Assembly: GCA_964016885.1 (NCBI GenBank)
Contig: CAXHJY010001629.1
Location: forward strand, 53,362 to 117,361
Length of the DNA stretch: 64,000 bases
Direction of reading: 5' to 3'
Source of the DNA: Eledone cirrhosa
Taxonomy: Eukaryota
The notes below the pieces were generated by a model. It was not told the DNA's origin. It made no database searches and worked only from the letters and a program-made list of their open reading frames with translations. Shown in pieces: positions 8,791 to 56,908 of this stretch. Numbering within the stretch: the first letter of the stretch is position 1; each line of letters begins with the position of its first letter. The translations under genes and the position numbers were made by a program.

Positions 8791-10392
8791 CGAATGATGA
8801 TTATAAAGACAAGACGAGCTTTAAAGGAGGTGGAAGTGGAGCCAAAATAGGTGAAGGAATTGGTGTCAGTTATAACTTTACATTCGTAAATTAAGTTTTT
8901 ATCAAGACAATGGTTGTTGAGAGCACATTTATTTTTAGCAGGGCAATTGCAATTGCGATTAGAGAGATTATTAACGAGTGACCTAGTGTTATCTATAGAA
9001 GGAATTGGATTGGAGAAGTTATTGGCGATAGGAATAATAGTTTCTTGATTTAGAGTGGGATTAAGAACATTTAGCGAAGTTGTGTTTGACGTTGTATTTG
9101 GGTTTGCAGAAATTAGCCTAGAGTTTACAATGACGTCGGGAGTACTATTACTATTATTATGATATTCATTGAATTTGATAACAGCATCAAACTAGCTAAT
9201 TTCTTGGATGTATCTCTTAATCTTGACACTGGCCTAAAACAATGAGAACCTAAATTATGTTAATTTTAAATCTAACCACCCTACCAATATTAAGAATGCC
9301 ATAGTTAGTAATATTGGAAAAAGAATATCTAACCTATCTTCTAATAAAAACATCTTCGATGCTAACGCCAATTACTATAATAACGCTCTTTCTAAAGCCG
9401 GCTATCCTGATAAAATCAAATATAATAAAGAAACAAATTCTAGAAGATCTTACAGTAGAATAATTAATCATGATCATTCCAATAACTTTAATAAAAGACC
9501 TAGATACAAAAACACAATCTGGTATAATGCTCCTTTCTCCATCTCTATTAATAATAATATTCCTAAATTATTCTTTAGTGCCTTAAATAAATGCTTCTCT
9601 CCCTTACATATCTATAGTAAAATATTTAACAAACACACTATAAAATTTTCCTATTCGACATCCTCCAACATTATCTCTAAACACAACAATAAGATAGTAA
9701 ATACTAAATCTCTTCCATCCAACACTGAATATCATAATAATAGTAATAGTACTCCCGACGTCATTGTAAACTCTAGGCTAATTTCTGCAAACCCAAATAC
9801 AACGTCAAACACAACTTCGCTAAATGTTCTTAATCCCATTCTAAATCAAGAAACTATTATTCCTATCGCCAATAACTTCTCCAATCCAATTCCTTCTATA
9901 GATAACACTAGGTCACTCGTTAATAATCTCTCTAATCGCAATTGCAATTGCCCTGCTAAAAATAAATGTCCTCTCAACAACCATTGTCTTGATAAAAACT
10001 TAATTTACGAATGTAAAGTTATAACTGACACCAATTCCTTCACCTATTTTGGCTCCACTTCCACCTCCTTTAAAGCTCGTCTTTTAAATATAAACTTAAA
10101 AGAACCAACACGGCTCTCTCAGAACTCATATGGTCCTTGAAAGACAAAAATATTAAATATAACATCTCTTGGAAAAGGGTTTCCTCTGCTTCTTCATACT
10201 TGAACAGTTCTCTATCCAAGACTTGCAATCTCTGTCTAAATGAAAAATTTACCATTATTTCTAATTTAGATTCTATAATAAATAGACGCACTGACTTGTT
10301 TTCTATCTGCTTGCATAAATTCCACAGAATTTTCCATAAAGTATACAGCTAATATGATAAACTTTATCAATTCAGAATCCTTTTCTCAAAGG

Positions 10393-12496: not shown

Positions 12497-12651
12497 TTAA
12501 TAATAATATTCGATTCGTTTCCAATTATGCAAACAGCCTCTTTTAAGCCATGTCAGTAGAATGAAACCATCATTCTTGCTCTTATGTTCTACTGACATGG
12601 GTGAAAAGAGGCTGTTTGCATAATTGGAAACGAATCGAATATTATCATTAA
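12497..12651. mobile_element. Hairpin MITE-like element, 65-bp arms, TTAA at both ends
   Basis: 12497-12561 pairs with 12587-12651; a second copy is at about 35634-35790. Confidence 0.7.
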
Positions 12652-12840
12652 GGGCGGTGAATTGGCTGCATCGGTAGAGCGCCAGACACCATGCTTTACA
12701 GCATAGAGTTATGGCCCTTTAAGTTTTGAGTTCAAATCCCGCCGAGGTTAACTTTGCCTTTCATCCTTACGAGGTCGATAAAATAAAGTACCAGTAATAC
12801 ACTGGGTAATTGCTGGCCTTGTGCCAAAAGTAGAAACAAT
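12652..12840 (+). mobile_element. tRNA-derived SINE (Nin/Deu-like core)
   Basis: A-box-like tggctgcatcgg, B box gagttcaaatcc, core gcctttcatcctt..gtcgataaaataaagtaccag, tail ggccttgtgcc..tagaaacaat. Confidence 0.9.
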
Positions 12841-12841
12841 T

Positions 12842-13104
<263 letters not shown>

Positions 13105-15739: not shown

Positions 15740-15745
<6 letters not shown>

Positions 15746-15906
15746 AAGTTTTATTTAAATTGTTGGGTTACAACGAGTAAATATTTATAACTGATATAAA
15801 AGCACTCAACAAGTATTTGGAGTATATTTACGATATTAAATAAATGGAAACTATATTTATAAAACCATATTTATTTCATTATATATATTCCAGGGATATC
15901 ATATTA
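15740..15906 (-). mobile_element. PLE pLTR fragment (family of 18219/21914), HHR 5' half missing
   Basis: Reverse complement of about 21945-22110. Confidence 0.75.
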
Positions 15907-16365
15907 ACAATACTATTCTTGTCTTTACTCTACATGATTATCGTTCAAGCATAAATAGACAACAGATATCAATATATCAATAAAAATATTAAAAAATATT
16001 AAAAAAAATATTGAAAAATAAAACACAGTATGCCCCGCAAATCAACCACAGAAAACAACCCTTCAAAATTAATTGACAATATATTGCCAAGTTCATTATA
16101 AGCATCAGAATCAAAAGCAAACAAAACCAAAATTATTTACCAAATCCTGTCTAGCAGAAATCATTCCAAAAGTTTAGGATACCCATTTGATCTACAGATG
16201 GTCTTATATTTATTATAGAAGTTTATCTAGTGTAAAATTTATTCGATATATTTGGAGCATCATCTTTTAGGGTAGTTTAATTATTCATGAAGAATGTTTA
16301 AAAAAAAGAAATCGAAAGATTTATCGGCGAGTTTCATAAATAATTACAAATCATAAGTAAATATA

Positions 16366-17306
16366 CTACATTTTAAATTTATATTTATATTTAAAAGTTG
16401 AGTTCAATCTATGTCTGCAGCAACTGAATAAATTTGTCCGTAAATTAAGGGAATTTTTAGATTTTAGTATAAAGAATATCTCCTCCGCGCAGAGGTCACA
16501 TGTCTCAGAAGATGAATTAAAAGGAATCCCTCTTGAGACTATATTCCAAGCCGTCGAATATCCAACGTTATCATGCTTAAGTTGCCAGAGTAAGCCTGAT
16601 AGTGATGTTGAAGATTTTTTGCTTGGATCTGTGAAAGAATTCTTGTGGTTATTATAGCGAAGTTTAAATTCTGTCGAGGTGGAACCAACATAGTTAAAAG
16701 AATTTAAGTCCGTTTTAACATTACAGTTGTATATTATATTTTTAACTAAGCAATTGTTATTTAACGGACATTTAGATCTATCTCTACAGTTACATTTGTT
16801 TACTTGGATATTATTTATGCCATTATCGGTATTTTGGCTAGGTTTTAAATTCCTATTATTTATTCTATTAATATTTTGTGCTAAATTTTTGGTGGATGAG
16901 TAAGTTAATTTTATAGTATGTCTATTGAAAATTGAGTGATACTTATGTGTTCTAGGGAAGCGATTATCAAGAGCATTAAAAAATAGTTTAGCGATGTGGG
17001 TTTTAATGTTTAGTGAGAAGGGGGGGGGGGGGGGGGGGGCAAACCATATTATATTCCTAGTTCTATTTCTTTTTTGGCTTTTGGAATTATTGTAATGCTT
17101 TCTATTATAGTTGTTAAAGTTGTTGCCGTAATTAAAATTGTTGTTATTTTGGTTAGTTTGTCTATTATTATCTATGTACATGATTTTATCACTATATCCT
17201 GCTCTAGCTAACGCTTCATTGTAATACTGGGCTTTTTCGTCGAAAATCTTTTTATTAGATGAGATTCTAAAGATACGTTTTTGAAAGACAAGAATAGTAT
17301 TGTTAA
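16366..17306 (-). mobile_element. PLE C-terminal ORF fragment (thumb plus GIY-YIG endonuclease), open frame
   Basis: KRIFRISS, IIWFAPP, IFNRHTIKLTYSST, CNCRDRSKCPLNNNCL..IIYNC..YVGST..FKLRYNNH, CDLCAEE, LNLR..CRH. Confidence 0.92.
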
Positions 17307-18218
17307 AATTAATGTAGATTCTATATATATTTGTGTGTATGTACACATATATGTATACTAGAATTTTTATAGCACAATGAGAATGTTTTCATGTGAAATA
17401 GGAATTTGCAGAGTTGATCACGTAAATTCACATGGATGTCTATAGTATCGAATCTGGGATAACCTTCTATTTTCTTTTTTCTTTTTTCATGAAAGTGCAT
17501 ATATACTTATGTATTTCAATTTGTTGAAGTTTTTATCTCAGTTTTTTATCTCAGTTCTGATTATAAACCTAAGAATTTTAAACTAGACATATGATCATTA
17601 TTTTTCACACATTATTGATACGTGTCTCATTCATGAATACTGATATTTACATTATAATACCTAATTCATACGAATTGATATTTTAGATGATGAAACATAA
17701 TGTTTTAAATCTGCCTCGTTTATCTCTGGATATTTTTCTTTTCTCTCTATGTAACGGCTGTTTCCTCTCCTAACCACATATATCTCTCTCTACCTTAATA
17801 CTAGAACTAAATAAATAAATAAATAAATAAATATATCATTGATACGTCATTCAACTGGTGCCCAACTACCTATTTTTCTCTCTCTCTATTTCTCTCTCTC
17901 TCTATCTATATCTATCTCTCTCTATTTTTTCTCTCTCTCTCTCTTCTCTCTCTCTCTCTATCTATCTCCCTCTGTTTTTTCTCTCTCTATCTATCTCTCT
18001 CTGTTTTTTCTTTACATGAATTTCTTCTCTCTATCTATCTCTCTATATCTCTCTCTCTCTGTTTTTCGTTGCATGCATTTCTTCTTTTTCTTCGCTTTCT
18101 TTCTTTCTTTCTTTTTATAACTGTCCCTAACATTTTTCACTACCAAATCAACTTTTTAAATGGAAGTTGAAGTTGTAAGGTATGTCAAATCTATCTATTT
18201 ATAAGACTGTTTATATTG

Positions 18219-18284
18219 TATTTTGTCTGATGAAGGCATACCATATTTTTAATATGATATCCCTGAAATATATATAATGAAATA
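18219..18284 (+). ncRNA. Type I hammerhead ribozyme (pLTR about 18180-18327)
   Basis: tattttgt-CTGATGA-aggcataccatat..atatgatatccct-GAAA-tatata-TA-atgaaata. Confidence 0.75.
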
Positions 18285-18396
18285 AATATGGTTTTATAAA
18301 TATAGTTTCCATTTATTTAATATCGTATATATATATATATGTATATACAGAGAGAGAGAAAGAGAAATAGAAAAAGTGAGAGAGAGAGAGAGATAG

Positions 18397-19353: not shown

Positions 19354-20832
19354 TTGTTATACTTTGGGAGGGTCATGTTGCCAATAGCACACGCACCAGT
19401 TGCTTTCACTCGCACAGTTGCTTCCAAATATCTGATCCACCGAAACAGCTGAGTTTCGGTGGATCAGATATTTGGATGTCATGGGTTTGGCATAATGGGA
19501 ATGGAGGTTTTGTTTTTTGTTATTAATAGTTTCTAACCAGAGCTCTGTGTCTAGTACAGGTAATCGATGGTTGGGGTGTTTGCTTGGGTAGTCTATAGTA
19601 AGTCTAATACTCTGGTGGATGGAGTTAGCTATTTGCTGGATGCTTTCCATGGTGTTTTTCTCTAATTCCTGACTGTTCTCTAGTGGGGGTGATTTTACTA
19701 CGATGTTTATATCATCAATGTAGCGAAAGTACATTATCAGGGTTAAGAGGTTGCTGTCTTCTAATTGTTCTTTAAGTTTATTGTTCCACCATACCATGAA
19801 TAGGTTAGCTATGTCACCTGCAAAGCTAACACCAATGGCTGCTCCCTCCTCTTGGGCATATGTTTTTCCATTAAATTTGAACATATGTTCCTTACGGGTT
19901 AGTTTTATACTGGCCCCCACCGCATGTGCAAGCATTTTCTTTAGTTCATCATGGTTTTCGGGGGTCCGTATGGCTCTGGTCCACCCGTTCCATCTTTCTC
20001 TGTGGATTTTCTTGGCCATTGAGGTAATGGTAGGTGGTCTGCCTCTTTCTGGCCTTGTGGGGCAGAGGTTCCTAAGGTCATACGTATCTAGATAATCATT
20101 ACTATAAATAAGTTTAAGTAGGAGTCCCAGCTAACTCCATCCACCAGAGTATTAGACTTACTATAGACTACCCAAGCAAACACCCCAACCATCGATTACC
20201 TGTACTAGACACAGAGCTCTGGTTAGATACTATTAATAACAAAAAACAAATCCTCCATTGCCATTATGCCAAACCCATGACTTCCAAATATCTGATCCAC
20301 CGAAACTCAGCTGTTTAGGATCACACCAAAATCAACATACTGATTACGGATTTAGTATGGGTGATGAGAAACGTGTCCCGCATGTGCAACCCCAAAGAAC
20401 TAGAGAGACACATACAACACTTCATCCACCGTATGCAGTTCTCCGGTTACAGAGAGATAAAATCAGAGTATATAGAGGAGCCAGAACCAAATGAGAAAAA
20501 ATGGTAAATAATGATACAAAAGAGACCTGCCCCTTGTATAGGAGCAAATTTTGGAATAGAATAGAAAGAACTAGGAATAAGGTTAAAAAACAAGATGGCG
20601 TAGGATAGAACAAAAGAGAGGCACAAAACAAAGAAAAGTATCCCCAGTCACTTAAGAGGTCACAGAATGTGTGACGAAAGAACTTTGACAATATATAAAC
20701 AACCATCCGGTCGTGGAACCAACCAGCAGGAAATTTATAAATTTTTAAATTTACAATTTTATTCATAATAAATTGGAGTGAAAGCAACCGATGTGTGTGT
20801 TTCTCATTAGCAACATGACCCTCCCAAAGTAT

Positions 20833-21628: not shown

Positions 21629-21662
<34 letters not shown>

Positions 21663-21668
<6 letters not shown>

Positions 21669-22025
21669 GATATTAAACAAATGAAAACTATATTTATAAA
21701 ACCATATTTATTTCATTATACATATTTCAGGGATACCATATTAAAAATATGGCATGCCTTCGTCAGATAAAATACAATATATAAACAGTTTTATAAATAA
21801 TTTTGACGTACCATAAATATAAGCGACCATTAAAATAGGAGGCTGGCTCCTATTTTAATGGTCGCTTATATTTATGGTACGTCAAAATTATTTATAAAAC
21901 TGTTTATATATTGTATTTTATCTGACGAAGGCATGCCATATTTTTAATATGGTATCCCTGAAATATGTATAATGAAATAAATATGGTTTTATAAATATAG
22001 TTTCCATTTGTTTAATATCGTATAT
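21663..22025. repeat. Fold-back palindrome of an HHR-bearing pLTR (about 180-bp arms, 5-nt loop)
   Basis: Centre ggag-gctgg-ctcc at 21844; one mismatch seen between the arms. Confidence 0.95.
21914..21979 (+). ncRNA. Type I hammerhead ribozyme; mirror copy on the minus strand at 21709-21774
   Basis: tattttat-CTGACGA-agg[hairpin]cct-GAAA-tatgta-TA-atgaaata. Confidence 0.8.
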
Positions 22026-22130
22026 CTACTCCAAAAACTTGTCGAGTGCTTTATATCGGTTATAAAATATTTACTTGTTGTAACCCAACAATTTTAAATA
22101 AAACTTTTGCATATATATATATATATACGG

Positions 22131-22180
<50 letters not shown>

Positions 22181-23015
22181 TATATGTATATATATATATA
22201 AAGTATTAAAAAAATAATGAATAAAACAATGAAACAGTTCCTTATATTAAACAAAAAAAGTTCATTATTTAACGATCGTTTCTAGGACATATATGTGTTA
22301 GAATTGGCATGCATATTCAACAGATCTATGTACAAAATTATACAAAATTATACAAACTATCAAATATAATATACATACCAACACATACATATGCCGTCTT
22401 CAGAAATAATGAAATATATTTATTGATAATAACAACAATTCAAAATTACAGGTCTGTTTGGGAACAGAGTTCAAATTGACCAATGAAATACACAAAAATA
22501 TATCAAGAAAATACAGTTAGGTGTGTGTATATATGTAAGTAACTTCGTTCATAGATATGCATAAAAATATATGTTCACATGCATACGCATGCCGAAAAAA
22601 TGTATGTAAATACAAAAATTCAGGGCTAATGTCTCTGTATGTTTATAATCTACAGATAAAATACACATACGTATATAAACATATATACATTCATATATAC
22701 ACACATATACATACATTCACACACACACGCGCATATACACATAAACATACATATACCCACGAACATACACACACACATACACACATATGTATATATTATT
22801 ATTATAACTATATGGATATTAAGGCGCACACATAAACACTGCCACATATATATTTACATCTAGATGCAGAAGTAGGTAAAGGGGGTCAGTAATTACTAAG
22901 GGTGTCAGACAACTGCCTATTTATAAAATGTATCTATAAATTTAGAAATAAAAAGAAATATATTAAAAAAAATATAAACAAGTAAAATATATACTCATAC
23001 ATAGAATACACACCG

Positions 23016-23058
<43 letters not shown>

Positions 23059-23378
23059 CATACACATACATATACATATATAAATACATAGACACATATA
23101 CATATATACATACACACACATATATATACACACATATATACACACATATATATATACATATACATACACACACATATATATACACACACACATACATATA
23201 CGTATATATACACACACATACACATATCCATGTATGTATATACACATACAACCACACACTCACACAACTCAGACATACATAAATAAAGAGATATACATAC
23301 ACACATATACATATATATATATATATAGATATATACATACACATAAATATATATACACACACACACATATACATACAC

Positions 23379-23430
<52 letters not shown>

Positions 23431-24469
23431 ATAAATAAATAAATAAATACACACAGTCAGACAATTATGTACACATATATATATATATACATACACACAT
23501 CTCTACAAATATATATACACACATACACACGCACACATACATATATACATACACACATATATATATAGACATATATATACACATATATATACATATATAT
23601 ATACATATATATACATACACATATATATATATATATATATACAATCATACATACTTATTTACATGCGCACATATGTATTTTTATACTCACATACAAACAC
23701 CCAAACATACATATCTACTTACATACACATACATACATCCACGCTTACAAATACAAATAATTATAGAGGGGGGGGGGGATTAAAATTATTAGTGGGAAAT
23801 AGTAAATATAGGTTTCAAGGAACATAGAATATTAATCTGCATTTAGATTATAATATGTGTTTACATAGTAGTTTCAGTATTAGGAAATGTAAGAAAGAAG
23901 GCAAAATTATGCATTTTAATATAAGTAGACTATTAATTATAGGTTAACTAAATTAAATATAGTTAATATATTGATTTCAAAGGTGTATACTACTTAGGTT
24001 TATAATATTTGAAGCGGAATTTTGAAGTTAAACAGTAGTAGAGTATTAATTATAGCATAACTAAATTAAAAATATTAACATTATGGTATCAATATTAGGA
24101 AATGAATTTAGTAATAGGGAAAACCAAATCAAGTATTTCATCGGTAGTAGAATATAAATTATAGGTTAACTAAATTAAAAATTATATATTAATTTCTATA
24201 GTATATGTTAATTAGGTTTATAATAATTAAAGCAGATTTTGTATTTTATCTATAGTAGAATATAATTATAGGTCAACAAAAATTAAAATTAATATATATA
24301 TATATATATATATATATTTAATTGTAAAGAATATATTAATTAGGTATATATTTAAAAATTTATCTCAGTTTATGATTACATGATATTCTGCAATCCATCT
24401 GTATTAGAATTTTAATTTTAAGCTAATTAAATTAAAATTATAGGTTAACTAAATTAAAATTAATATAGT

Positions 24470-24969
24470 ATACCACCATAAGTATACCACCAATACATCA
24501 AACTAACCATAATATCTCCTCAAATACAGAATTAACGAAAGGTTGTAACTGTAGAAACAAAGCAAACTGCCCATTAAAAGGAAATTGTCTTGTTAACAAC
24601 ATAGTTTATAAATGTAAAGTTAAAACTAAAGATTCTATTTGCTCATATATAGGAGCTACTTCTAACAATTTTAAGGTAAGGTTTAATACCCACAAACATA
24701 GTTTTAAAAATGCCGCACTGGCTAATACAACATCTCTAGCAGAAAAAATTAATAGTTATAGAAATAAGAATATAGAATATGATATGACCTGGAGTGTGCT
24801 CAAAAGAGCCACCCCTTATCAAAATAATAGAAATGAATGTAGATTATGTTCCCAAGAACTATTTGAAATAATGAAATCTAAGGATATCCTATTAAATAAG
24901 CGACAGGAATTAATTATATCGTGTAATCATAAACTGAGAAAAACATTTAAATATTATAAACCTAATTAA
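24470..24969 (+). mobile_element. PLE GIY-YIG endonuclease C-terminus (spacer of the large IR)
   Basis: GCNCRNKANCPLKGNCL..IVYKC..YIGAT..FKVRFNTH..CRLCSQE..LLNKRQE..SCNH..KYYKPN*. Confidence 0.92.
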
Positions 24970-26297
24970 TAATATATATTTTAGAAATTAATATATAATT
25001 TAATTTAAATGTAGTTAACCTATAAATTTTAATTTAATTAAAATTCTACTACAGATGAGATTATAAAATATTGTGTAATCATAAATTGTGAAACACTTTA
25101 AATATTATTAACATAATTAATATATACTTTGTAAATTAATTTATAGATTAATTTTAGTTTATTTAACCTTTTATTAAAATTCCTTTACAGATGAAATATA
25201 ACAAAATATCGTGTAATCAATAACAGAGAAATATTTTTTAATATTATAAACCTAATTAATGTACAATTTAGAAATTTATTTATAAATTAATTTTAATTTA
25301 GTTAACCTATAATTTTAATTTAATTAGCTTAAAATTAAAATTCTAATACAGATGGATTGCAGAATATCATGTAATCATAAACTGAGATAAATTTTTAAAT
25401 ATATACCTAATTAATATATTCTTTACAATTAAATATATATATATATATATATTAATTTTAATTTTTGTTAACCTATAATTATATTTACTATAGATAAAAT
25501 ACAAAATCTGCTTTAATTATTATAAACCTAATTAACATATACTATAGAAATTAATATATAATTTTTAATTTAGTTAACCTATAATTTATATTCTACTACC
25601 GATGAAATACTTGATTTGGTTTTCCCTATTACTAAATTCATTTCCTAATATTGATACCATAATGTTAATATTTTTAATTTAGTTATGCTATAATTAATAC
25701 TCTACTACTGTTTAACTTCAAAATTCCGCTTCAAATATTATAAACCTAAGTAGTATACACCTTTGAAATCAATATATTAACTATTTTTAATTTAGTTAAC
25801 CTATAATTAATAGTCTACTTATATTAAAATGCATAATTTTGCCTTCTTTCTTACATTTCCTAATACTGAAACTACTATGTAAACACATATAATCTAAATG
25901 CAGATTAATATTCTATGTTCCTTGAAACCTATATTTACTATTTCCCACTAATAATTTTAATCCCCCCCCCTATAATTATTTGTATTTGTAAGCGTGGATG
26001 TATGTATGTGTATGCAAGTAGATATGTATGTTTGGGTGTTTGTATGTGAGTATAAAAATACATATGTGCGCATGTAAATAAGTATGTATGATTGTATATA
26101 TATATATATATATATGTGTATGTATATATATGTATATATATATGTATATATATGTGTATATATATGTCTATATATATATGTGTGTATGTATATATGTATG
26201 TGTGCGTGTGTATGTGTGTATATATATTTGTAGAGATGTGTGTATGTATATATATATATATGTGTACATAATTGTCTGACTGTGTGTATTTATTTAT

Positions 26298-26355
<58 letters not shown>

Positions 26356-26789
26356 GTGTATGTATATATGTGTGTGTGTGTGTGTATATATATTTATGTG
26401 TATGTATATATCTATATATATATATATATGTATATGTGTGTATGTATATCTCTTTATTTATGTACGTCTGAGTTGTGTGAGCGTGTGGTTGTATGTGTAT
26501 ATACATACATGGATATGTGTATGTGTGTGTATATATACGTATATGTATGTGTGTGTGTGTGTATATATATGTGTGTGTATGTATATGTATATATATGTGT
26601 GTATATATGTGTGTATATATATGTGTGTGTATGTATATATGTATTTGTATGTATGTGTGTATGTGTATGTACATATATGTGTGTATATATATATGTGTGT
26701 TGTGAATATATGTATATATATTGTGTGTATGTATATGTGTCTATGTATTTATATATGTATATGTATGTGTCTCTATATATATGTGTATG

Positions 26790-26893
<104 letters not shown>

Positions 26894-27127
26894 TGTATTC
26901 TATGTATGAGTATATATTTTACTTGTTTATATTTTCTTTAATATATTTCTTTTTATTTCTAAATTTATAGATACATTTTATAAATAGGCAGTTGTCTGAC
27001 ACCCTTAGTAATTACTGACCCCCTTTACCTACTTCTGCATCTAGATGTAAATATATATGTGGCAGTGTTTATGTGTGCGCCTTAATATCCATATAGTTAT
27101 AATAATAATATATACATATGTGTGTGT

Positions 27128-27165
<38 letters not shown>

Positions 27166-27514
27166 TCGTGGGTATGTGTATGTTTATGTGTATATGCGCG
27201 TGTGTGTGTGAATGTATGTATATGTGTGTATATATGAATGTATATATGTTTATATACGTATGTGTATTTTATCTGTAGATTATAAACATACAGAGACATT
27301 AGCCCTGAATTTTTGTATTTACATACATTTTTTCGGCATGCGTATGCATGTGAACATATATTTTTATGCATATCTGTGAACGAAGTTACTTACATATATA
27401 CACACACCTAACTGTATTTTCTTGATATATTTTTGTGTATTTCATTGGTCAATTTGAACTCTGTTCCCAAACAGACCTGTAATTTTGAATTGTTGTTATT
27501 ATCAATAAATATAT

Positions 27515-27667
27515 TTCATTATTTCTGAAGACGGCATATGTATGTGTTGGTATGTATATTATATTTGATAGTTTGTATAATTTTGTATAATTTTGTACAT
27601 AGATCTGTTGAATATGCATGCCAATTCTAACACATATATGTCCTAGAAACGATCGTTAAATAATGAA
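27515..27667 (+). ncRNA. Type I hammerhead with extended stem II; mirror at 22261-22413 (-), third copy 63861-64000 (-, cut by the window edge)
   Basis: ttcattattt-CTGAAGA-[114 nt]-GAAA-cgatcg-TT-aaataatgaa; perfect 10-bp stem I and palindromic stem III. Confidence 0.78.
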
Positions 27668-28384
27668 CTTTTTTTGTTTAATATAAGGAACTGTTTCATT
27701 GTTTTATTCATTATTTTTTTGAGAGGTATAGAGGTATAGAGATTGTTTTAGCAAGAAGCTAACGGCATTCTATAACATATATGCGACTATAACGTCAAGA
27801 TGGGAAAAGTAGTTAACGAAAGATTTAGGAAAAATAACTCAAACTCATCTCAAAAGAGAATCAGGATACAAATTCATCCACAGAATTTAGTAAAATCCAG
27901 GGAAAAATCTATAGACCTTTAACTCATGATAAAACAAAGTTTGAAACACTTATCCTTCAATTTGGAATAACATCAAATGCTCTGTATAGTCTTAAAAGAC
28001 TATTTCATGAAAACTTTCAGTGGAGATGGTCACGGTTGGAACATCATTCATCAGCAGAGCTCAACAGAAAACCAGGGCTCTCACAGTAATATAGTTCGAA
28101 AAAGGGAATTCTAAAACTGGCTAGTTCGCCTTCATGTGTATTTATGAAAAAGCACATGAGGAAAAAACGGGGCTAGTGACGTCAGGATGGAAGTGAATGT
28201 TTATTTACAAGAAATAGCAGTCAAATACATTCTGAAAAAAAAAACTCTACAAAGGAGTTCAGCAAAATAGCAATAATTATCACAGTTTTTATGAAAAAAA
28301 CCGGGATTAGTCACAGATAGTTTAAGCACTCTAGGAAAAGAATCCGAGTATAAATTTGACCACTTCCTGTTGCGCGCGCACCCC

Positions 28385-29877: not shown

Positions 29878-30633
29878 AATATCCACGGTTAGTTGTGGGG
29901 TCTAGTCTGCATGAAAAACTCAATGTAATCCATATGTTGAAAATGTTGTAAGTTAAAATAAATCCCGGAAAACAATAAAACATCTAAAGGAAAAAATAGT
30001 CATGATATAAGTTAAAACAATGAAATAAAAATTCAAGTCATTAGGAATATACTTCACTGCTTTATGATCGTTTCTAGGTGATAATAATACATCGTACGCA
30101 TATTTCGTTATCGATCTATGTAAGGTTAGTTACAAAATATCAAATAAGGAATATATTTACCTACGTGTATATCGTCAGCCGTTGTCAAAAGCAATGAAAA
30201 TGTTATTCAAAATCAATAGTAAATTGAGTTCTATGACCTTATTTGGAGGTAGCTGAAGATCAAACCAATCAAATGGTGTTTAGCCATGTGATGTTAAGAC
30301 GAAATATAACTCTCTTTACTTGAGGTCATGACCTTTTGAAAGGAATGGTTGAATGGTGTTAAAAATAGAATTACTATGAAGAACCTATGAATAAAAATGG
30401 TTGTTGTATTGATAGTGGAATGTAGATGGTGGAGTGAAGTTTAAAAAGGGATGTAAAAATTATGTTGAGTTGTGTTGTATGGAGTTTTTAGGTGAATATA
30501 AATAAAGATATATAAAATATACAGAAATAACCAGGATAAATATAGATAGGTAAAGTAATGGTCCTAACTAGGAAGGATAGATATTAAAAGATGAAAATTA
30601 TAATAAGATAATAAAATACAATAATATAATAGA

Positions 30634-30824
30634 ATTGTTTCTACTTTTTTGGCACAAGGCCAGCAATTACCCAGTGTATTACTGGTACTTTATTTTATCG
30701 ACCCCGTAAGGATGAAAGGCAAAGTTAACCTCGGCGGGATTTGATCTCAGAATGGCAAGGGCCGTAACTCTATGTGTCAAAGCTTGGCGTCCGACCCTCT
30801 ACCAATTCTGCCAATCCACCGCCC
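30634..30824 (-). mobile_element. tRNA-derived SINE
   Basis: Full-length copy of the 12652 family. Confidence 0.9.
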
Positions 30825-31206
30825 TGTAATATAATATAGTGCAGTATGGTACATTGTATATAGTATAATATAGCGTATGATGCATCATAAAATATAAAAT
30901 AGTAAATACTTTCAAGTGGGTCTATGTATAAGTAATCAAACTCAGATAAATGCATGTTGACATATAGCCAAAACGCATAATTTTCTTAGTTCACAAAAGT
31001 ACATATACTCACATATATAGATAGAGGTATAATTACATTGATACTCCATTAAAAACATATATACGCATACATAGATATATACATATACATATACATACAT
31101 ACACGCCCACATACATATATATATATACATACATATACCTACATATATACATGTACACACACATACATGTACATACACATACACACACACATACACATAT
31201 ACACAC

Positions 31207-31239: not shown

Positions 31240-31911
31240 GTAAAAATAACGGAGCAAAGGACTCGTAATTAAATGAGCTCAAAGGAAATAGTTTTCCTGG
31301 GCACTTTAAAATGAAATATATAGAGGGGAAAGACACAGGAGAGTTTGTTTTTCATTACAGGAATTTCGAACCACCAGCGTGAGAAGAATATAAGCTACTA
31401 GAGGCATTGGTAAAACATGAAAATTAAAAGTATAAATTGAAATGAAAAACCATCCTCACCTAAATCACGCGAGTCCTTTGCTCCGTTAATTTTACTTGAT
31501 ATTTGCTCCTTGCGCCCTCTCTGCTGTTGAGCACCTTAAATTGAGTAGTATAGGCTGTCATCTCTAGCAGCTTGTTCTGTTCATTCCACCAGTTACTGCT
31601 CCAAGCACGCATTCCTCTTATGTCTACATGTGCGAAGGGTGGTTTATTTTAGTTCTCTCTCTAGTAGTGCGGACAATATTGACCTTCCACATGCTGAGGA
31701 CCAACCCGGCCGTATTGGAACCCACTAAAATGGCGAAACATGCTCCTGGTGAGTGTGTACATGTGTGATTTAGGTGAGGATGGTTTTTCATTTCAATTTA
31801 TACTTTTAATTTTAATGTTTTACCAATGCCTCTAGTAGCTTATATTCTTCTCACGCTGGTGGTTCGAAATTCCTGTAATGAAAAACACACTCTCCTGTGT
31901 CTTTCCCCTCT
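31239..31911. repeat. Interleaved inverted repeats (A B A' C B')
   Basis: B 31322-31468 pairs with B' 31765-31911; A 31239-31265 pairs with A' 31470-31496. Confidence 0.85.
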
Positions 31912-32654: not shown

Positions 32655-35442
32655 TCTTATCATACATACATAGATACATGTATACCCATGCAATGACAGG
32701 TGGTTATGTACCTTGATGCCCTTAGTCCGTAACGCATAAATCTATGGAAGCTAAAAAATTAAAAGGTTAAAATATTAACAGGAAGGCGTATAATTAGGGA
32801 AGGGGATACTAACAAAATGGTACGTCACATAGAGCTATAGTGAGCTGCTATTTAGAATGTTTAATTAGGTTTATAGTACTTAAATATTTTTCGTATACGG
32901 TGATTACCAGCTATAATCAGTTCTTGTCTTTTATTCAATAAATCGTCCTTAGATTTAGTAATTTCCAAGATCTCTCCAGAACATAATCTGCACTCTCTCC
33001 TGTTCCCAAGATATGGAGTTCTTTGCAGAATGGTATCCCACGTTAGCTTGAAATCTATTTGTTTATCTTTTTATAGTTATTTACTGCTTCAGCTAAAGAT
33101 GTGATGTTAGCTAGTTTAGTATTGTTAAAGCTACTGGAGTGTGCGAAATATCTTTTCTTAAATGTGTTCGATGTAGATCCTTTTTATAATTTGTTGGAGT
33201 CAGTAGTAGACACAGTGCATTTATATATTACATTATTAATCAAACAGTTGCCATTTCAGGAGCAACCGCTTCTATTTCTGCAATTACAACCATACGTAAG
33301 ATGGTTGTTGGAGGTACCTACATAATTCTCATTAATCCTGGAGCTATTCTTATTGTAATTAATGTTAGAGAGAGAATGAGTGCTGCTTTGTGGGTGATTT
33401 AGTGCTGGGGTTGTATTGTGATTTTGTGTTATGTTGCTTTTGTGTTGGTGATTTGGGTGGTTGTGTTTTCCAGGTTGAAGAATTGTATTATTTGTCCTTT
33501 TAAAAGGTGCAGTCTTATTTAAATTATGTTGTGGTGGTGTGGTCATATTATTTTTAAATTTATAAATGTTGTAATTGCTTATTTTCTGTTGGAGATTGTT
33601 TGATGTAGAGTATGAGAATTTAACTGTATACCTGTTAAATATTTGGTGGTATCTGTGGTATTTTTTGGTGTTTGTAGCTTTTGCTAGGTTTTGTAGTATG
33701 GTCCTTAGTAGTGTTGGGGATATATGAAATTTTTTCTTTATATCCACTTCTAGTTAGGGCCTCGTTGTAGAAGGGTGCATTTTTGTAAAATATATCCTCA
33801 TTGGAAGATAAATTAGAAAGTCTAAGAGATATGTTATATACTAAGTTTTTGAGTATAGAGCCAGGGTGGTTAGAGCGTCAATATACATAGTGTAGATTCT
33901 GGTTGGGTTTGTGGTAAGGTTGATAAATATTCGTAGAGAGGTCTAAGGTAACGTCAAGGAAGTTAGCTACTTTTGAGGTGTTTTCAAAGGTGATATTAAG
34001 GTTGTAATAGTCCTTAAGGAATTTTCTAATTTATTTTTTGTTTTTCTCTATATTAGAATTGCTAAGATTGTTAGATATCAATAGACAATCATCCCGATAA
34101 AGACCACCTTTGAGGTGGGGAAAAGAGGAATGAATATTATAGAGGAGAAATAGTCCAACGAGGTCTGTAACTTGAACAGAGTCCATGGATCCCATCGTTA
34201 TCTCGAATAAGTTGTTATATGTGTTTCTTGTCCAGTGTTCTTCTTCGAAGTTTAGTTAGGTTTTTCTAGCGTGTGTTATGATGTTGATTTCCTCAGTAGA
34301 TAAATCCGATCTATTTCTGGCGAAAATCAGTGCTTTGTTTAAGAGAATTGGAGAAATCGAAGAATAGTAAGAATCGGTGTCAAATTGTATGAATGAAGCT
34401 GAGTTTTTATTCTCGATGTTAGTGAACCATTCAATAACCTGGGAAGTGTTATCCCATAATGGAAGTATCACAAATTTTCTAATCTGTGGAATGATTCGAT
34501 CAATAATTTTCTTGCTGATAGTACCGATATCAGATTTTGATGGGCATATCAGTCTAATAGATGGGTTCGAATTAATGTCAAATTTGTGGTCCTTCAGGTT
34601 GAAGTGTGGGCTTTTAGGTGTGAATGGCTCCGTCCTATCTTCAATATGGATTTTTTTTTACTATATCACATGATGTGTTGTTCAAGAATGTCAGTGCGGT
34701 GGTGCTGGTTTTCTTGTAGTTTTTTCTAAGTTCTTTATAAATGAACTGGTTATATTTATCGATGTCCATATGGTACAGATTACCAGTTTTGTCAGAATGG
34801 ACATGGACATTGTTTGAAATTTTCAGTTGCTGAAGGGTAGAGTCTAATTCCTTTTGGAATTCAGATTTATGTTTCCTGAACTTTATGTTTTTAATCATGT
34901 TCAGTAGGGCGCTCCCCAAATTTTCAAGTTGAATATTATGAGGAAGATTTTTGTATGTGTTGAATCCATAGCGTGATTTCTTTTCATTTGTATTGGTTTT
35001 GTTGTCAAAATGATAGGCTCTCCATCTCTTTCTCCTAATAAACTGGTTAGTTTTTTGTATGAGCAGGAGTAGATATTTGTCTTTAGGTAGAATCGGAATA
35101 TTCTTCAACGAAGTACCCAAATATTGCTTTTCCATTGTGATGCAGGAATTAGATAATAGAAGAGCTCAACTAAATATTATAATTACAGAAGTGGAGACAG
35201 GTATTAAAAATATATTGAAGGAGCAAGATGAACAGAAATATCCACGGTTAGTTGTGGGGTCTAGTCTTCATGAAGAACTCAATGTAATCCATATGTTGAA
35301 AATGGTGTAGGTTAAAATAAATCCCGGAAAACAATAAAACATCAAAAGGAAAAGAGAGTCATGATATAAGTTAAAACAATGAAATAAAAATTCAAGTCAT
35401 TAGGAATATACTTCACTGCTTTACGATCGTTTCTAGGTAATA

Positions 35443-35633
35443 ATTGTTTCTACTTTTTTGGCACAAGGCCAGCAATTACCCAGTGTATTACTGGTACTTT
35501 ATTTTATCGACCTCGTAAGGATGAAAGGCAAAGTTAACCTCGGCGGGATTTGAACTCAAAACGTAAAGGGCCATAACTCTATGCTGTAAAGCATGGTGTC
35601 TGGCGCTCTACCGATGCAGCCAATTCACCGCCC
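35443..35633 (-). mobile_element. tRNA-derived SINE (part of the duplicated cassette 35441-35877)
   Basis: Near-identical reverse complement of 12652-12840. Confidence 0.9.
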
Positions 35634-36057
35634 TTAATGATAATAATATTCGATTCGTTTCCAATTATGCAAACAGCCTCTTTTCAGCCATGTCAGTAGA
35701 ACATAAGAGCAAGAATGATGGTTTCATTCTACTGACATGGCTTAAAAGAGGCTGTTTGCATAATTGGAAACGAATCGAATATTATTATTAATATTCGAAA
35801 ACCTCATATTACATTTATATATATATAAAATGTATTTCCACACACCCTCGGAACTCTCTTCCTAACCTATTTATCCTAGTTCTGAATTAGGAGTTCAGAA
35901 CTAGCTGTCGAAACGGCCGGAGCCCACCTGTTGGGGTCCTGACTCTTTTCCTATTACCCACTCTACTACCCAAAGTATCGAGTACTCTGGTGCTTTATGG
36001 TCCACCTGGTTCCTTACCACACTTCCTTCGTATTATATATATATATATGTATATATA

Positions 36058-36202
36058 TAGAAGTGGTTACACAACAGTTAGTTCACCATACCGAGAACAA
36101 TTGTTTCACCTCTAGCAGATCCTCAGCTCGTAATGACTTTACGAGCTGAGGATCCGCTAAGGTGAAACAATTGGTGAACTAACTGTTGTGTAACCACTTC
36201 TA
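36058..36202. repeat. Fold-back palindrome containing an HHR-like motif in each arm
   Basis: Minus strand 36092-36130: cgag-CTGAGGA-tctgctagaggt-GAAA-caattg-TT-ctcg. The plus arm lacks the cleavage-site segment. Confidence 0.8.
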
Positions 36203-36877: not shown

Positions 36878-37817
<940 letters not shown>

Positions 37818-37930
37818 ACTGCCCAAACAGTAAGATGTCATCAATGTCTTTGATCCCCTTTTCCACCCTAACCCTTTACAATTTAAACAGGGTGTTTAAA
37901 TCATAAAGCTATGACATTATTTAGCTATAA

Positions 37931-38542
37931 GGGCGGGGAATTGGCAGTATCGGTAGAGAGTCGGACGCCATGCTTTCTAGCATAGTTACGTCCCTTTACA
38001 GTTTGAGTTCAAATCCCGTCGAGGTTAACTTTGCCTTTCATCCTTCCGGGGTCGATAAAATAAAGTACCAGTAATGTACTGGTGATGGCTGGCCTAGTGC
38101 CTAAAGTAGAAACAATAATATAATATAATACAATATAATTGTTTCTACTTTGGGCACAAGGCCAGCAATTACCCAGTACATTACTGGTACTTTATTTTAT
38201 CGACCCCGTAAGGATGAAAGGCAAAGTTAGCCTCGGCGAGATTTGAACTCAGAACATTAAGGGCCGTAACTCTGTGCTGCAAAGCATGGCGTCCGACCCT
38301 CGACCGATACTGCCAATCCACCACATAACTTAATATAATATAGTATAATGTAATATGATATAATTCATTCTACTTTAGGCACAAGACCAGCAATTACCCA
38401 GTGTATTACTGGTACTTTATTTTATCGACCTCGTAAGGATGAAAAGCAAAGTTAACCTCGACAGGATTTGAACTCAGACCGTAAAGGGACATAACTATGC
38501 TGGAAAGCATGGCGTCCGACTCTTTACTGATACTGCCAATCA
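37931..38542. mobile_element. Cluster of three SINEs (37931-38116 +, 38138-38322 -, 38367-38542 -)
   Basis: A box tggcagtatcgg, B box gagttcaaatc and the same core; copies separated by (TAATA)n. Confidence 0.92.
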
Positions 38543-38938
38543 CATAATATAATATAATGTAAAATGTAAATGGCAATTTATGTCTCTCTGTCTATTTGTG
38601 TATTCTGTGTATAACCATTGGCGCCTACACCAGTGATCCGATCATGATGAAACTTTACTCACATGTTAAGCTAATATTCAGAAACAGGATTGAATAATTG
38701 GATTTCAATAAAAAATCAATAAGGGAACCCCTGGGGACATCTTTACAATGGAGGAGGAAAGAGGGAAGAGGAGATACTACTACTCTATGTTAAACCTCCC
38801 TCCTACTAGACCCCTTCCTCCTCCCACAATTCAGTCCTCCAAAACGAGGCAACAACTTATTTGATTTTGGTTCTTCATTCTGTAGAGAAAGAGAGAAATG
38901 GGTTGAAAGCGAGGGGGATGAGAGAGAGAAACAGAGGG

Positions 38939-43018: not shown

Positions 43019-43505
43019 TATATATATATGTATGTATATAGTAATATATATGTATAAATAAAGACAGTAAATCTCATGTCTAAAATTACGAGGGTATAAG
43101 ATACCACTAATGTTTTAAAAATGTAATCTTAACCATACAGTATGATATATTAATTTTATACTGACCGTATCAAACACATTTCATCTCTCGGACAGATTTT
43201 AGACTCAATCTGTTTCGCCCTGAAAAAATTGTGTTTGTAACAGATAATCTGTAGGCTATCATCAGCGAGAGATAGATCAAATGAAACAAAGCCCCCCCCC
43301 CCCCCCCCCCCCCTAACAGCAATTTGAGGACCAAAGATATGTCCCTCGTGGTCTGCACGCTATACGTGGTATGAGTAGTTATGCTAGAAATAATAGCCTT
43401 ATCCCACTCAGTTTATAAGCTCACCCATTCAAGGAGCCGAAATACAAATGAAATAGAGTTATTAACTCTAGATAACGTTTATTTATACATCTATATTACT
43501 ATATA

Positions 43506-43744
43506 ATTGTTTCTACTTTAGGCACAAGGCCAGCAATTACCCAGTGCATTACTGGTACTTTATTTTATTGACCCCGTAAGGATGAAAGGCAAAGTCAACC
43601 TCGGCGGGATTTGAACTCAGATCGTAAAGGGACGTAACTATGCTGGAAAGCATGGCGTCCGACCCTCTATATTACTATATAATTGTTTCTACTTTAGGCA
43701 CAAGGCCAGCAATTACCCAGTGCATTACTGGTACTTTATTTTAT
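43506..43744 (-). mobile_element. SINE plus partial tandem copy
   Basis: 43506-43668 and a duplicated tail 43682-43744, with the flank ctatattactatata also repeated. Confidence 0.85.
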
Positions 43745-46366: not shown

Positions 46367-46425
46367 ATTTGACAACATAATACATTATAATATAACATAA
46401 TATAATATGACGTAATATAATATAA

Positions 46426-46502
46426 TTGTTTCTACTTCTGGCACAAGGCCAGCAAATACTCAGTACATTACTGGTACTTTCTTTTATCGACCCCGTAAGG
46501 AT
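46426..46502 (-). mobile_element. SINE 3' fragment within (TAATA)n
   Basis: Core and tail only. Confidence 0.8.
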
Positions 46503-47243: not shown

Positions 47244-49090
47244 CTCTACTCTTTTACCTGTTCCAGCCATTCGGCTGAGGCCATGCCGGGGCACCGCCCT
47301 TTTTGCTACACATTTTATCTCCAGCCTGTATTGGTTGGCCACTGGTGTAAGAGGGAGTTTGTTTCCCTCATGCCTTGCTGTGGGCTCATCCGGGATCCTG
47401 GATAGCAAGGTGTCGAGATGTTTCTTGAAGACATCCATCTCCACACCATGCAGATCTCTCAGATCCTTCGGCAGCTTGTTGAAGAGTTGAGGGCCCTTGA
47501 ATCCCAGGCTATTGCAATATCTGCTCCTTATTCTAGATGTGGAAGACGGGACCTTTGGCACCACAAACTGACGTCCTGTTCGACGGTTGGTCCAACTCCC
47601 AATGCCAAAGTTACGTGCTGGTCCCTCCAGGATTTTCCACATGTAGGTCACTGCTTATCTCTCCCGTCTTCGTTCCAAGGAGTAGAGGTTCAGTTCTTTT
47701 AGCCTCTCCCAGTAGCTTGTCTCCTTCATCGTGGCAATCCTCTTGGTGTAGCTTCGCTGGATTGCCTCAAGCTCCGTGTTTAGTTTGACACTATGTGGTC
47801 ACCACAACTGGGAGCAATAGTCCAGGCGGCTTAGGACAAATGTCCTCCATAGTGTCAACATGGTGTCTCGGTCTCTTGTCCGGAAAGTACTCAAGATCCA
47901 GCCAGCGAGTCGTCTGCACATTGTCGCCACTTTCATGATGTGCGAGGAAAAAGATGCATCATCGCTCATGTCTATACCCATGTCTCGTATCTATTGTGAC
48001 ACGAGGATATCGGTCCCTCCTGGTCCTGCGTAACTGTGTTGTACTGTATTTGTGTTTGCAGGTTTGTATTGTAGGGCTTGGAATTTGTCAGCATTAACCG
48101 CATGTTGTTTTCTTCCGCCCATTTGTATATGACATCCAGATCTTGTTGTAAAAGGGCAGCGTCAGTCGGGTTTTTGATTGCCTGTGCTACCTTAGTGTCA
48201 TCAGCATAGCTAGTGAGGGATGTTGTTGTATGTACCACAGATGGCATGTCTGAGAGAGCCACCAAAAACAGTAGTGGTCCCAGGACTGTCCCTTGGGGCA
48301 GCCCACGTGTTATTGATGTTTTGTTTGAGAGGGCCCCGTTTGCTGCGACTGTCTGGCTTCTGTCCTTTAAGAAGTCATGCAGCCACTCACCTACTTTTCC
48401 AGTTATGCCGAGTCCGTGCAGTTTGTGACATATCATTCCGTGGTCGACCTTGTCAAAGGCTTTCGCAAAGTCAAGATACATCACGTCCACATGTGAGCTG
48501 TCTAGTAGTTGTCTCAGTACCCAGTCGTAGTGATGTAGCAGCTGTGTAAGGCAGCTTCTTCCTGGGCGGAAACCATGCTGCGTGCTAGTCAGGCGGTCAT
48601 TTCCCTCGAGGAAAGTGATCAGTTTCTTTCTGACGACTCGCTCTATGACCTTACTGATATGTGACGTCAGGAAGACTGGCCTATAGTTTTTGGCCTCCGC
48701 TCTGCTACCTCTTTTATGGATAGGGCATATTGTGCCTTCTTTCAACTCCCTGGGTATTATACCGCTAGCCAAGGAGCTTCTGAAGAGCATCTTCAGTGGA
48801 GTTGCTAACGCCCGCTTACATGTTTTTAAGAGGACTGCTGGGAATTCATCAGGTCCAGCAGCTGAGTCTGTTCTAATTTCATCCATAGCGTATACCACAT
48901 CCTCCTTCGTTATGTGGTTGATGGTCGCCATTTCTTCATGTAGTGTTGTGGCATCAAAGAACTCCTCTGGTATTGTTATTTGCATGTGCCTCAGTGGACA
49001 TGTGAACACACTTTTGTACTGTTCGTTCAGTATTTCACATATCTCTTGGGGATTCTCGGTTAATGAAACGTCTGTATGGAAGAGTGGCTC
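47243..49090 (-). mobile_element. CR1-group LINE, 5'-truncated, frameshifted RT
   Basis: [63 protein letters not shown]; tail ggtaaaagagtagagt runs into (TA)n. Confidence 0.92.
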
Positions 49091-49330
49091 AATATTAAAA
49101 TAACAGATTGAAGTTTAAGCAAAGAATCGCTGCTTTCACCCTTAACGGGATCTTCTGAAACTAGAAAAATCAATCTGTGAACGCAGAAGTAAATATTTCG
49201 AAAAACCGTTGCAACCGAAGGAAAACAAGAAGACAATACTTTGGTTCGTGAAGACGTTCCCTGGCAACGAACGGAAAAAAGCGAAGATAATACGTCGTTA
49301 TATGTAGCTAGGAGAATAAATACTCGCAAA
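49091..49330 (-). mobile_element. Helitron-family internal fragment
   Basis: 49091-49205 is the reverse complement of about 8510-8625. Confidence 0.6.
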
Positions 49331-49418
49331 GACAAAACATGTTTATGATATAAATGAAGTTGTAGACTAATATTCTATTTAGAAAACCGAATGATTCTCG
49401 GCTTCGGAGTTAAGAATA

Positions 49419-49558
49419 ATTGTTTCTACTTTTGGCACAAGGCCAGCAAATACCCAGTGCATTACTGGTACTTTATTTTATCGACCCCGTAAGGATGAAA
49501 GGCAAAGTTAACCTCGGCGGGATTTGAACTCAGAATGGCAAGGGCCGTAACTCTATGC
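49419..49558 (-). mobile_element. 5'-truncated SINE
   Basis: B box, core and tail present. Confidence 0.88.
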
Positions 49559-49589
49559 GTATAGATATATAGATGTGTATTTGTAAACA

Positions 49590-52370: not shown

Positions 52371-52519
52371 CACACGCGCACACACACATATATATATACA
52401 TATATATATGTGTCCGTGTGTGAGTGTCTATATGTGCATGTATATGTACATACGCATATACATATATATGTATATATGTGTGTGTGTCTATGTAAGTAGG
52501 GATATATATGTATGTAGGG

Positions 52520-55133
<2,614 letters not shown>

Positions 55134-55812
55134 TGTTTGTGTAAATTAACCGGAGATTATCCATTCTATTATATTGTATTATATAGTATATAATTGTATT
55201 GTTTATTATTGATTATATATGCTACTTATAATTATATCATATTATTACCCCATGTATATTGGGTAGATGTATTAGTATTATCATTATTATTATTCTCATT
55301 CCTATCATGCTCATTTTCATATTCAAACTCTTGATAAGGTTAAATTTGTGCAGTTGAAGATAGATGTGTGTATTGTTGTAGGTGTATGTGTGTGTGTGTG
55401 TGCACACATATATACATATGCATAATGTACCTTTTGATTTTCCATTGTAACTTTAATGTTGGTAAAGGTATAATTATATTATATTACATTATATTATATA
55501 TGATTCCTGATCTATATAACCACTTTTGTCTAGCTCTAGGTTTTTTTTGCTTTGGACTATATTTGTAATATGGTTCTTAATGTCACATACATCCTTAGTA
55601 ATTTTCATTATATATTTTTATTATTTTTATTATATATTTTTGCAATACTTTAGTATATGTACACTCCATATTCTTTGGAGCTTCTGGCTTGTATCTGCCG
55701 TTATTACTTCTTGTTGTTTGAATTGCCCTGATGAGTCCTTAATAGGACGAAACATTGTCGGCTAATAAAGACTTTTGATGTATTGAAGGCTTCTTTGTTT
55801 TACTCTCTTAAC
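55134..55812 (+). mobile_element. Solo PLE 3' UTR/pLTR inserted in (TA)n
   Basis: T-rich UTR ending in an HHR and AATAAA; TA arrays on both sides. Confidence 0.65.
55725..55762 (+). ncRNA. Canonical minimal type I hammerhead ribozyme
   Basis: gcc-CTGATGA-gtcct-taat-aggac-GAAA-cattg-TC-ggc (GUC site). Confidence 0.88.
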
Positions 55813-55867
55813 ATATATATATATATATATATGCTTATATATATATATATGCATATATATATATATA

Positions 55868-55948
<81 letters not shown>

Positions 55949-55954
<6 letters not shown>

Positions 55955-56908
55955 GGCTGACGCTGCCCTCTTACAGCAGGATCTGGATGCCATATACAGA
56001 TGGGCGGAAGAAAACAACATGCAGTTTAATGCTGGCAAATTCCAAGCCCTACAATACAAACCTGCAAACACAAACACAAATATAGCGGAACACAGCTACA
56101 CAGGACCAGGAGGGACCGATATCCCCGTGTCAAAATCGATACGAGACCTGGGCATAGACATGAGCGATGATGCATCTTTTTCTTCACACATCATGATGGT
56201 GGCGACAGCATGTAGACGATTCGCTGGCTGGATCTTGAGGACTTTCCTTACAAGAGATCGAGACACCATGTTGACACTGTGGAGGACCTTTGTCCTAAGC
56301 CGCCTGGACTACTGCTCCCAGCTGTGGTCACCCCATAGTGTCAAACTAACCACGGAGCTTGAGGCAATCCAGCGAAGCTACACCAAGAGGATTGCCAAGA
56401 TGAGGGAGACAAGCTACTGGGAGAGGCTGAAGGAACTGAACCTCTACTCCTTGGAGCGAAGACGGGAGAGATACGCAGTGATCTACATGTGGAAAATCCT
56501 GGAGGGACTAGCACCAAACTTTGGCATTGGGAGCTGGACCAACCGTCGAACAGGACGTCACTGTGTGGTGCCAAAGGTCCCGTCTTCCACATCTAGAATA
56601 AGGAGCAGGTATTGCAATAGCCTGGGATTCAAGGGCCCTCAACTCTTCAACAGGCTGCCGAGGCATCTGCGAGACTTGCGCATGACGTGGAGGTGGATGT
56701 CTTTAAGAAACATCTCGACACCTTGTTATCCAGGATCCCGGATGAGCCCACAGCAAGACACGAGGGAAACCTAAGGGCAGCAGCAACAAACTCCCTCCTA
56801 CACCAGTGGCCAACCTATACAGGCTGGAGATAAAATGTGTAGCAACAAGGGCGGTGCCCCAGCATGGCCTCAGCCGGATGGCTGAAACAGGTAAAAGAGT
56901 AAAAGAGT
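55949..56908 (+). mobile_element. CR1-group LINE 3' fragment (sister of 47243-49090) inside (TA)n
   Basis: [36 protein letters not shown]; tail ggtaaaagagtaaaagagt. Confidence 0.92.

Follow-up and report, generated by a model that had tools for sequence, protein, structure and literature searches.

Insertions of EN+ PLEs are described, in the available parts of PMC8557442, PMC3846280 and PMC2377424, as carrying an inverted 5'-truncated pLTR, a palindrome at the inverted joint and a one-sided tail of 30-40 bp. The Hydra clade is marked, according to the available part of PMC8557442, by a C-terminal EN, the motifs DKT, RWK, CxCX5C, CxxC and CxH, a hammerhead, (TA)n targets and a length generally <3 kb. 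PLE hammerheads are type I, with a large helix II and a small palindromic helix III predicted to act as a dimer (PMC4209133, available part). In the accessible text of PMC3846280 the motif TCACT is called Inr-like in rotifer pLTRs and antisense self-priming is suggested for such palindromes, and the accessible text of PMC2377424 places the promoter of Drosophila Penelope in the pLTR. In vitro, a PLE nicked both strands and extended them, starting at two internal sites between which the tail lies (PMC11167929, available part).

Here we analysed a palindrome in a stretch of 64,000 nucleotides of Eledone cirrhosa DNA (assembly GCA_964016885.1, contig CAXHJY010001629.1, positions 53,362 to 117,361), referred to below as the window. 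As far as the accessible parts of the three papers on EN+ PLE insertions go, it resembles these in having a head-to-head copy inverted by the 5' end, a palindrome at the joint and a one-sided tail, as well as heavy 5' truncation, microhomology joins and a TCACT Inr-like motif in the pLTR. It differs from them in that the tail is 86 nt long instead of 30-40, both copies are reduced to the pLTR, which makes the insert a palindrome over nearly its whole length, and the inner ends pile up at one site. The insertion layout is already published, and the palindrome is a further family member of a known element class.

Two other classes were considered and rejected. The palindrome is like the animal non-LTR retrozymes in being non-coding, having a type I hammerhead and deriving from a PLE pLTR, but retrozymes are direct tandem units with at least two same-strand hammerheads (bioRxiv 10.64898/2026.07.22.740005, available part). 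It has one hammerhead per strand and no direct tandem, and was not kept as a retrozyme for this reason. MITEs and foldback DNA transposons have inverted repeats at both termini and a constant interior; the one-sided tail, the variable centre and the RT-bearing parent spoke against this class.

The palindrome and its hammerheads

The features of the locus are given below. Element positions in the text are counted backwards from the tail end, with 22111 as 0.

21631 to 21667, no strand: left (TA)n target tract, from the sequence; its last 5 bases are common to the element end, which makes the border ambiguous
21663 to 21853, minus strand: inverted 5'-truncated pLTR copy, spanning -86 (the inner fixed end) to -271
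21709 to 21774, minus strand: hammerhead motif belonging to the inverted copy; the core is at 21766 and cleavage is predicted at 21717
21842 to 21848, no strand: head-to-head joint, made of a 5-nt unpaired centre and a 2-nt microhomology (CT)
21847 to 22025, plus strand: sense pLTR copy with a 5' truncation at -264, so that it misses the putative RNA start by 14 nt
21914 to 21979, plus strand: type I hammerhead with stem I of 8 bp, core CUGACGA at 21922-21928, a long bulged stem II, GAAA at 21960-21963, a self-complementary stem III of 2 bp and cleavage predicted after 21971
22026 to 22111, plus strand: PLE tail of 86 nt, on one side only, leading into the ORF in the parent
22112 to 22200, no strand: right (TA)n-rich target tract, from the sequence

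The original prediction described arms of about 180 bp with a 5-nt loop and one mismatch, and measurement bore this out: the arms at 21663-21841 and 21847-22025 are 179 bp long, differ at one position (21684/22004) and enclose the 5-nt centre GCTGG. Among hairpins with a loop of at most 12 nt, this was by far the strongest one in the window that is not a simple repeat, with a score of 175; the only other hairpin kept scored 73. The GCTGG 'loop' was found to be extra antisense element sequence rather than new sequence. The left arm is 7 nt longer, reaching to -271, and the right arm starts from -264, with the two overlapping by 2 nt (CT) at the joint; the longer arm is the one without the tail. 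As predicted, only the right arm runs on, for 86 nt more (22026-22111) before (TA)n, and this extension corresponds to the PLE tail. Both flanks of the palindrome are (TA)n, where a TSD leaves no readable trace.

Each strand had been said to read an antisense and then a sense hammerhead, and the type I motif was indeed found in both arms. With our own descriptor, six distinct hammerhead cores were detected in the window, compared to 0-2 in 30 shuffles, and the hammerhead was present in the pLTR of the family, its cleavage being predicted. Rfam gave no hammerhead match to the motif, and none among the 150 of 287 window matches that were listed. Compared with the PLE hammerheads in the available part of PMC4209133, the motif is alike in being type I with a large helix II and a small palindromic helix III; here stem I has 8 bp, stem II has about 13 bp with bulges, and activity is predicted. 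The core was intact in 58 of 62 sense arms and 70 of 77 inverted arms.

It had also been proposed that the long hairpin would, as RNA, sequester the ribozyme and might present double-stranded RNA to ADAR or Dicer. The first of these points holds as a prediction: the computed energy cost of forming the hammerhead was 4.0 kcal/mol in the isolated motif and 5.9 kcal/mol in the sense arm with its tail, against 95.1 kcal/mol in the full hairpin, and the ribozyme would thus be buried if the palindrome were read through.

Hammerhead cleavage was considered as a source of the inner ends. Three ends coincided with the predicted cut site, but one of them (L123) reflects an insertion that came later and carries a 9-bp duplication. 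This leaves a single locus, L076 (G000:C2 near 353433870), where both arms end exactly at that site, and a raw-read joint from 21821 to 21972. These two cases are too few to establish cleavage as the source, and were kept as a hint that some templates may be self-cleaved RNAs.

Other inverted structures in the window

The same geometry had been claimed for 36058-36202 and 22208-27720, which proved similar only in part. The first is a stub of another family with an imperfect palindrome (81% by BLAST), in which the plus arm lacks 11 nt including the cut site. The second, 5.5 kb long, is an inverted structure whose hammerheads lie at 22403 (minus strand) and 27525 (plus strand), with 96% identity over 1473 columns; it represents the long form of the layout, with an endonuclease fragment in a non-palindromic spacer. 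This structure belongs to a Hydra-like family with a hammerhead stem II of about 110 nt and a 3' UTR whose long microsatellites are copied into both arms, and a third copy of the family begins at the window end (63815-64000).

A copy of a related subfamily at 15745-18305 has the same two fixed ends, with the tail on the minus strand at 15745, an endonuclease ORF fragment (16366-17388, minus strand) and an inverted partner with an intact-looking hammerhead at 18227 (plus strand). Further inverted pairs with 84-100% identity were located at 8811-10083, which flanks a PLE endonuclease-region ORF, and at 19440-20319, 31322-31911, 37151-37422, 37940-38317, 62175-63127 and 47247-56901; the hammerhead scan covered the first six of these pairs and found none in them. 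Three more type I hammerhead cores, of other families, lie at 11309 (plus), 28054 (minus) and 42487 (minus). A repeat family of about 200 nt has roughly a dozen copies, lying in either orientation, some of which end in palindromes (12510-12860, 30620-30840, 35438-35790, 37928-38570, 43490-43744, 46417-46502, 49411-49560, 59392-59443 and 61455-61622). The segment 40238-46258 holds what we take to be a related pair of non-LTR retrotransposon fragments encoding RT and, at the end, a restriction-like endonuclease.

Parent element, copies and outer ends

A search of the 3.0-Gb genome of the source returned 1280 candidates, and all 40 that were scored were full-length, 95-100% identical and located on many contigs. 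A 29-nt hammerhead motif had 1772 exact genome matches and the pattern of the same centre type was found at 71 loci spread over the chromosomes, with 0 matches for the controls in both cases. The object is therefore ordinary, one of about 70 near-identical stubs and of well over a thousand pLTR copies.

For the analysis of ends, loci were chosen by a 22-mer of the tail (165 matches) to avoid selecting for palindromes, and 90 of them were examined (the first 30 and 60 of the next listed). This sample represents one subfamily, the tail 22-mer matching about a tenth of reads at one base. Both arms of one locus (L093) have seven rare variants in common, which mark a distinct source copy.

The longer copies extend upstream via the 3' UTR into an ORF with RT and a C-terminal endonuclease, forming a continuous length series from the stub up to ORF-bearing copies. 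Two of them (L061 and L103) have outer ends identical to those of the window copy and enclose most or all of the ORF; in a third (L070, minus strand) the pLTR and tail lead directly into the ORF, as in partial tandems. The ORF pieces of these three copies are tied to the same pLTR and were recognised by motifs and by eye as RT and GIY-YIG-type endonuclease. Frameshifts were present in all parent copies read. Pfam gave no match for either L070 ORF piece, and one weak RVT_1 match on an unrelated window ORF. Upstream of the element in L061 (544-1537) are fragments that we presume to be of a PIF1-like helicase, possibly a Helitron remnant.

The parent protein has the Hydra-clade marks DKT, RWR, CxCX5C (CNCRNKSKC), CxxC (CDLC) and CxH (CRH), with SDKTNN in L061 and L103, DET in L070, and RWR as a variant of RWK. 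By eye, neither a CCHH motif nor an IFD was evident, and the RT follows Hydra-1_Obim motif by motif in the available part of the supplement of PMC8557442. Set against the clade description in the same source, the family is alike in DKT, RW plus a basic residue, CxCX5C, CxxC, CxH, the hammerhead and the (TA)n targets; it differs in RWR instead of RWK and in size, L103 measuring about 4.1 kb from ATG to tail end with its long 3' UTR, compared to 'generally <3 kb'. Classified by motifs and by eye, the palindrome is the shortest form of a Hydra-clade PLE insertion in (TA)n.

The outer ends of the copies were fixed. The sense copy ended exactly at the tail end in 81 of the 90 loci, and at least 66 had an inverted copy adjoining the 5' end, 59 of which start at one inner site; the figure of 66 is a lower bound, as the rule missed the inverted arms of L074, L048, L121 and L123. 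BLAST placed the inner site at -83 to -94 and its true position is -86, the -83 ends being over-extension into (TA)n; 'mismatches' at position -85 were excluded as an artefact of the same kind. Insertion was into (TA)n, with TATATA following 72 of 89 tails and ATATATAT preceding 46 of 59 inverted arms. Both start sites lie, in the parent, in TATAT patches. A similar 35-nt motif follows each fixed end at the 86-nt spacing (L070), scoring 48 compared to a mean of 29 and a maximum of 49 in 2000 shuffles.

This arrangement is comparable to the internal initiation of Poseidon_Ac, as presented in the available part of PMC11167929, in that two start sites flank the tail where the pLTR meets the ORF, both target strands are cut and extended, and the targets are AT-rich. 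The Poseidon_Ac start sites are not homologous to the target, whereas here both lie in TATAT patches matching (TA)n, and the joining of the two Poseidon_Ac cDNAs is not treated in that part of the paper. The proposal that the palindrome is a recurrent product of PLE reverse transcription is supported.

Arms, joints and origin of the palindrome

Both arms were present in 65 of 89 loci, one duplicate (L081) having been dropped. The inverted arm was longer by more than 20 nt in 31 of these, the tail arm was longer in 11, and the two were within 20 nt of each other in 23. In the 31 copies each arm carries sequence that is absent from the other, and in seven of them (L035, L038, L097, L108, L110, L112 and L122) the arms have almost no overlap. 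The arms disagreed at 7 of 245 comparisons of subfamily markers, compared to about 107 expected for independent templates; these comparisons cover five linked sites and a set that also includes the window and 23 palindrome-picked loci. Divergence was 0.9% from arm to arm and 1.8% between loci. Judged by both measures, the two arms come from one source, although gene conversion between arms could account for part of the concordance.

An overlap of at least 2 nt was found in 23 of 33 clean joints, compared to 19% in the null (p about 1e-9 without the reference locus); the 32 of 65 joints with unmatched letters were left out of this count. By hand count, the stretch from -278 to -254 holds 48 of 154 inner ends, and the stretch from -291 to -279 holds none. 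The inner end of L046 was read by eye as -277. Among the 50 of 71 centres that were listed, several inner ends reach -278 and none, by eye, goes further. This wall, which comes from the assembly alone, coincides with the A of TCACT. A TATAA lies 26 nt upstream of it; as the region is AT-rich, TATAA is weak evidence. Genomic ends alone thus point to -278 as the likely RNA 5' end. A strong pause of RT at the wall would look similar.

Based on these results, the palindrome is quite likely a doubly 5'-truncated insertion of a Hydra-clade PLE in (TA)n, in which two separately primed cDNAs of sense RNA were joined head-to-head. The endonuclease would nick both (TA)n strands, and the two target ends would each prime on a TATAT patch able to pair with the (TA)n target, one of them at the tail end and the other 86 nt further upstream. 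Where priming takes place in the 5' pLTR copy of the RNA, synthesis would run off at the RNA 5' end (about -278), and this run-off would give equal short arms. The two cDNA 3' ends may then anneal over 1-7 nt and be filled in, so that the palindrome would be a by-product made afresh at each insertion. The inferred run-off at -278 is the reason to favour a sense template over the antisense self-priming of PMC3846280 (available part). In some copies, for example L055 and L060, the arms overlap far beyond the pLTR, which needs strand displacement or two sibling RNAs, and because of such far-overlapping arms a template of 'one RNA' is not established.

An improbable, though the least unlikely, alternative is that a single cDNA was extended to the hotspot, folded its 3' end back over 2 nt and copied itself into the second arm. 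Such self-priming has been proposed for these palindromes in the accessible text of PMC3846280, the joint geometry (2-nt pairing round a 5-nt loop) suits it, and it explains the arm concordance directly. Short fold-back stubs of about 5-45 nt are also present at the inner-end hotspot (L031, L136, L138, L139 and L141). These stubs indicate that intramolecular snap-back happens as well, and the copies with a longer tail arm fit it. However, where the inverted arm is longer yet tail-less (31 of 65 copies, several of them with almost no arm overlap), neither arm can be a copy of the other. At the window locus the strand able to fold back begins at the inner site and carries no tail that could be copied. 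Self-copying also leaves unexplained the common stopping point of 59 of 66 inverted arms, a single site within an AT-rich repeat. The snap-back part of the original prediction thus survives for the stubs at a few loci. It does not hold as a general rule, since the window copy and at least 31 of 65 copies contradict it.

That the palindrome is a small non-autonomous ambisense ribozyme element moving as a unit, as had been suggested alternatively, was found to be very improbable. High copy number, fixed outer ends and mostly intact hammerhead cores would be in line with such an element, and some centres do recur (4, 2, 2 and 2 of 30). However, the 30 copies fetched had 24 kinds of centre, and the exact 21-nt centre junction at the window locus was unique in the genome. 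Its 15-mer core, for which a genome search had been advised, occurred 10 times, 8 of them in the family, in different subfamilies and several in short stubs. The recurrent centres fall on natural microhomologies in different subfamilies, and the six same-centre groups examined had no rare variant or arm-specific mismatch in common, so that copying of the whole palindrome as one unit seems unlikely. The continuous length series up to ORF-bearing copies and the predicted burial of the ribozyme by 95 kcal/mol also argue against a mobile unit, and this part of the prediction was abandoned.

A fold-back artefact of assembly or library preparation can hardly be credited. The window lies on a small unplaced contig, and in a check of raw RAD reads that another study had obtained from three samples, no read or contig spanned the exact joint of the locus. 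In these samples, however, 5855, 6754 and 8721 reads leave the element after 22025 into (TA)n, about 11,000 continue past 22025 into the tail, and a family fold-back joint was found in all three. The raw-read confirmation that had been called for was accordingly obtained for both outer ends and for a family joint, but not for the joint of this locus. Moreover, the arms are unequal (one-sided tail, 7-nt offset and one mismatch), and both ends are at family-fixed sites, with 71 such centres over the chromosomes. DNA repair or recombination between two ordinary copies after insertion, by a hairpin-capped break or an inverted duplication, would suit the (TA)n tracts, the microhomology joints and the concordant arms, but is scarcely plausible, since an inverted duplication would also copy the tail and flank, whereas the mirrored arm stops at the second fixed end in 59 of 66 copies.

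Returning to the joining of two primed cDNAs, the palindrome lacks the ORF as well as the core-promoter-like bases further upstream, and in all likelihood it is inert. The stubs may hold a record of the PLE insertion cycle, a reading to which we give an even chance: with the sense RNA of a single source as template, both ends of a cut (TA)n would prime, telomerase-like, by pairing with two TATAT patches; the cDNAs would run off where transcription starts, at the A of TCACT, and be connected through microhomology. If true, this would settle the choice between a sense template and antisense self-priming for head-to-head PLE palindromes, and would map a promoter from genome sequence alone. In the open literature, which was the scope of the search, no paper was found that tests a two-cDNA run-off model beyond the available part of PMC3846280.

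The value of the palindrome is as a readout of how PLEs, the closest relatives of telomerase, make their inverted ends. From the statistics of ends, a candidate RNA start emerges together with two candidate priming sites. If read through, such inserts would be a putative genome-wide source of perfect double-stranded RNA.
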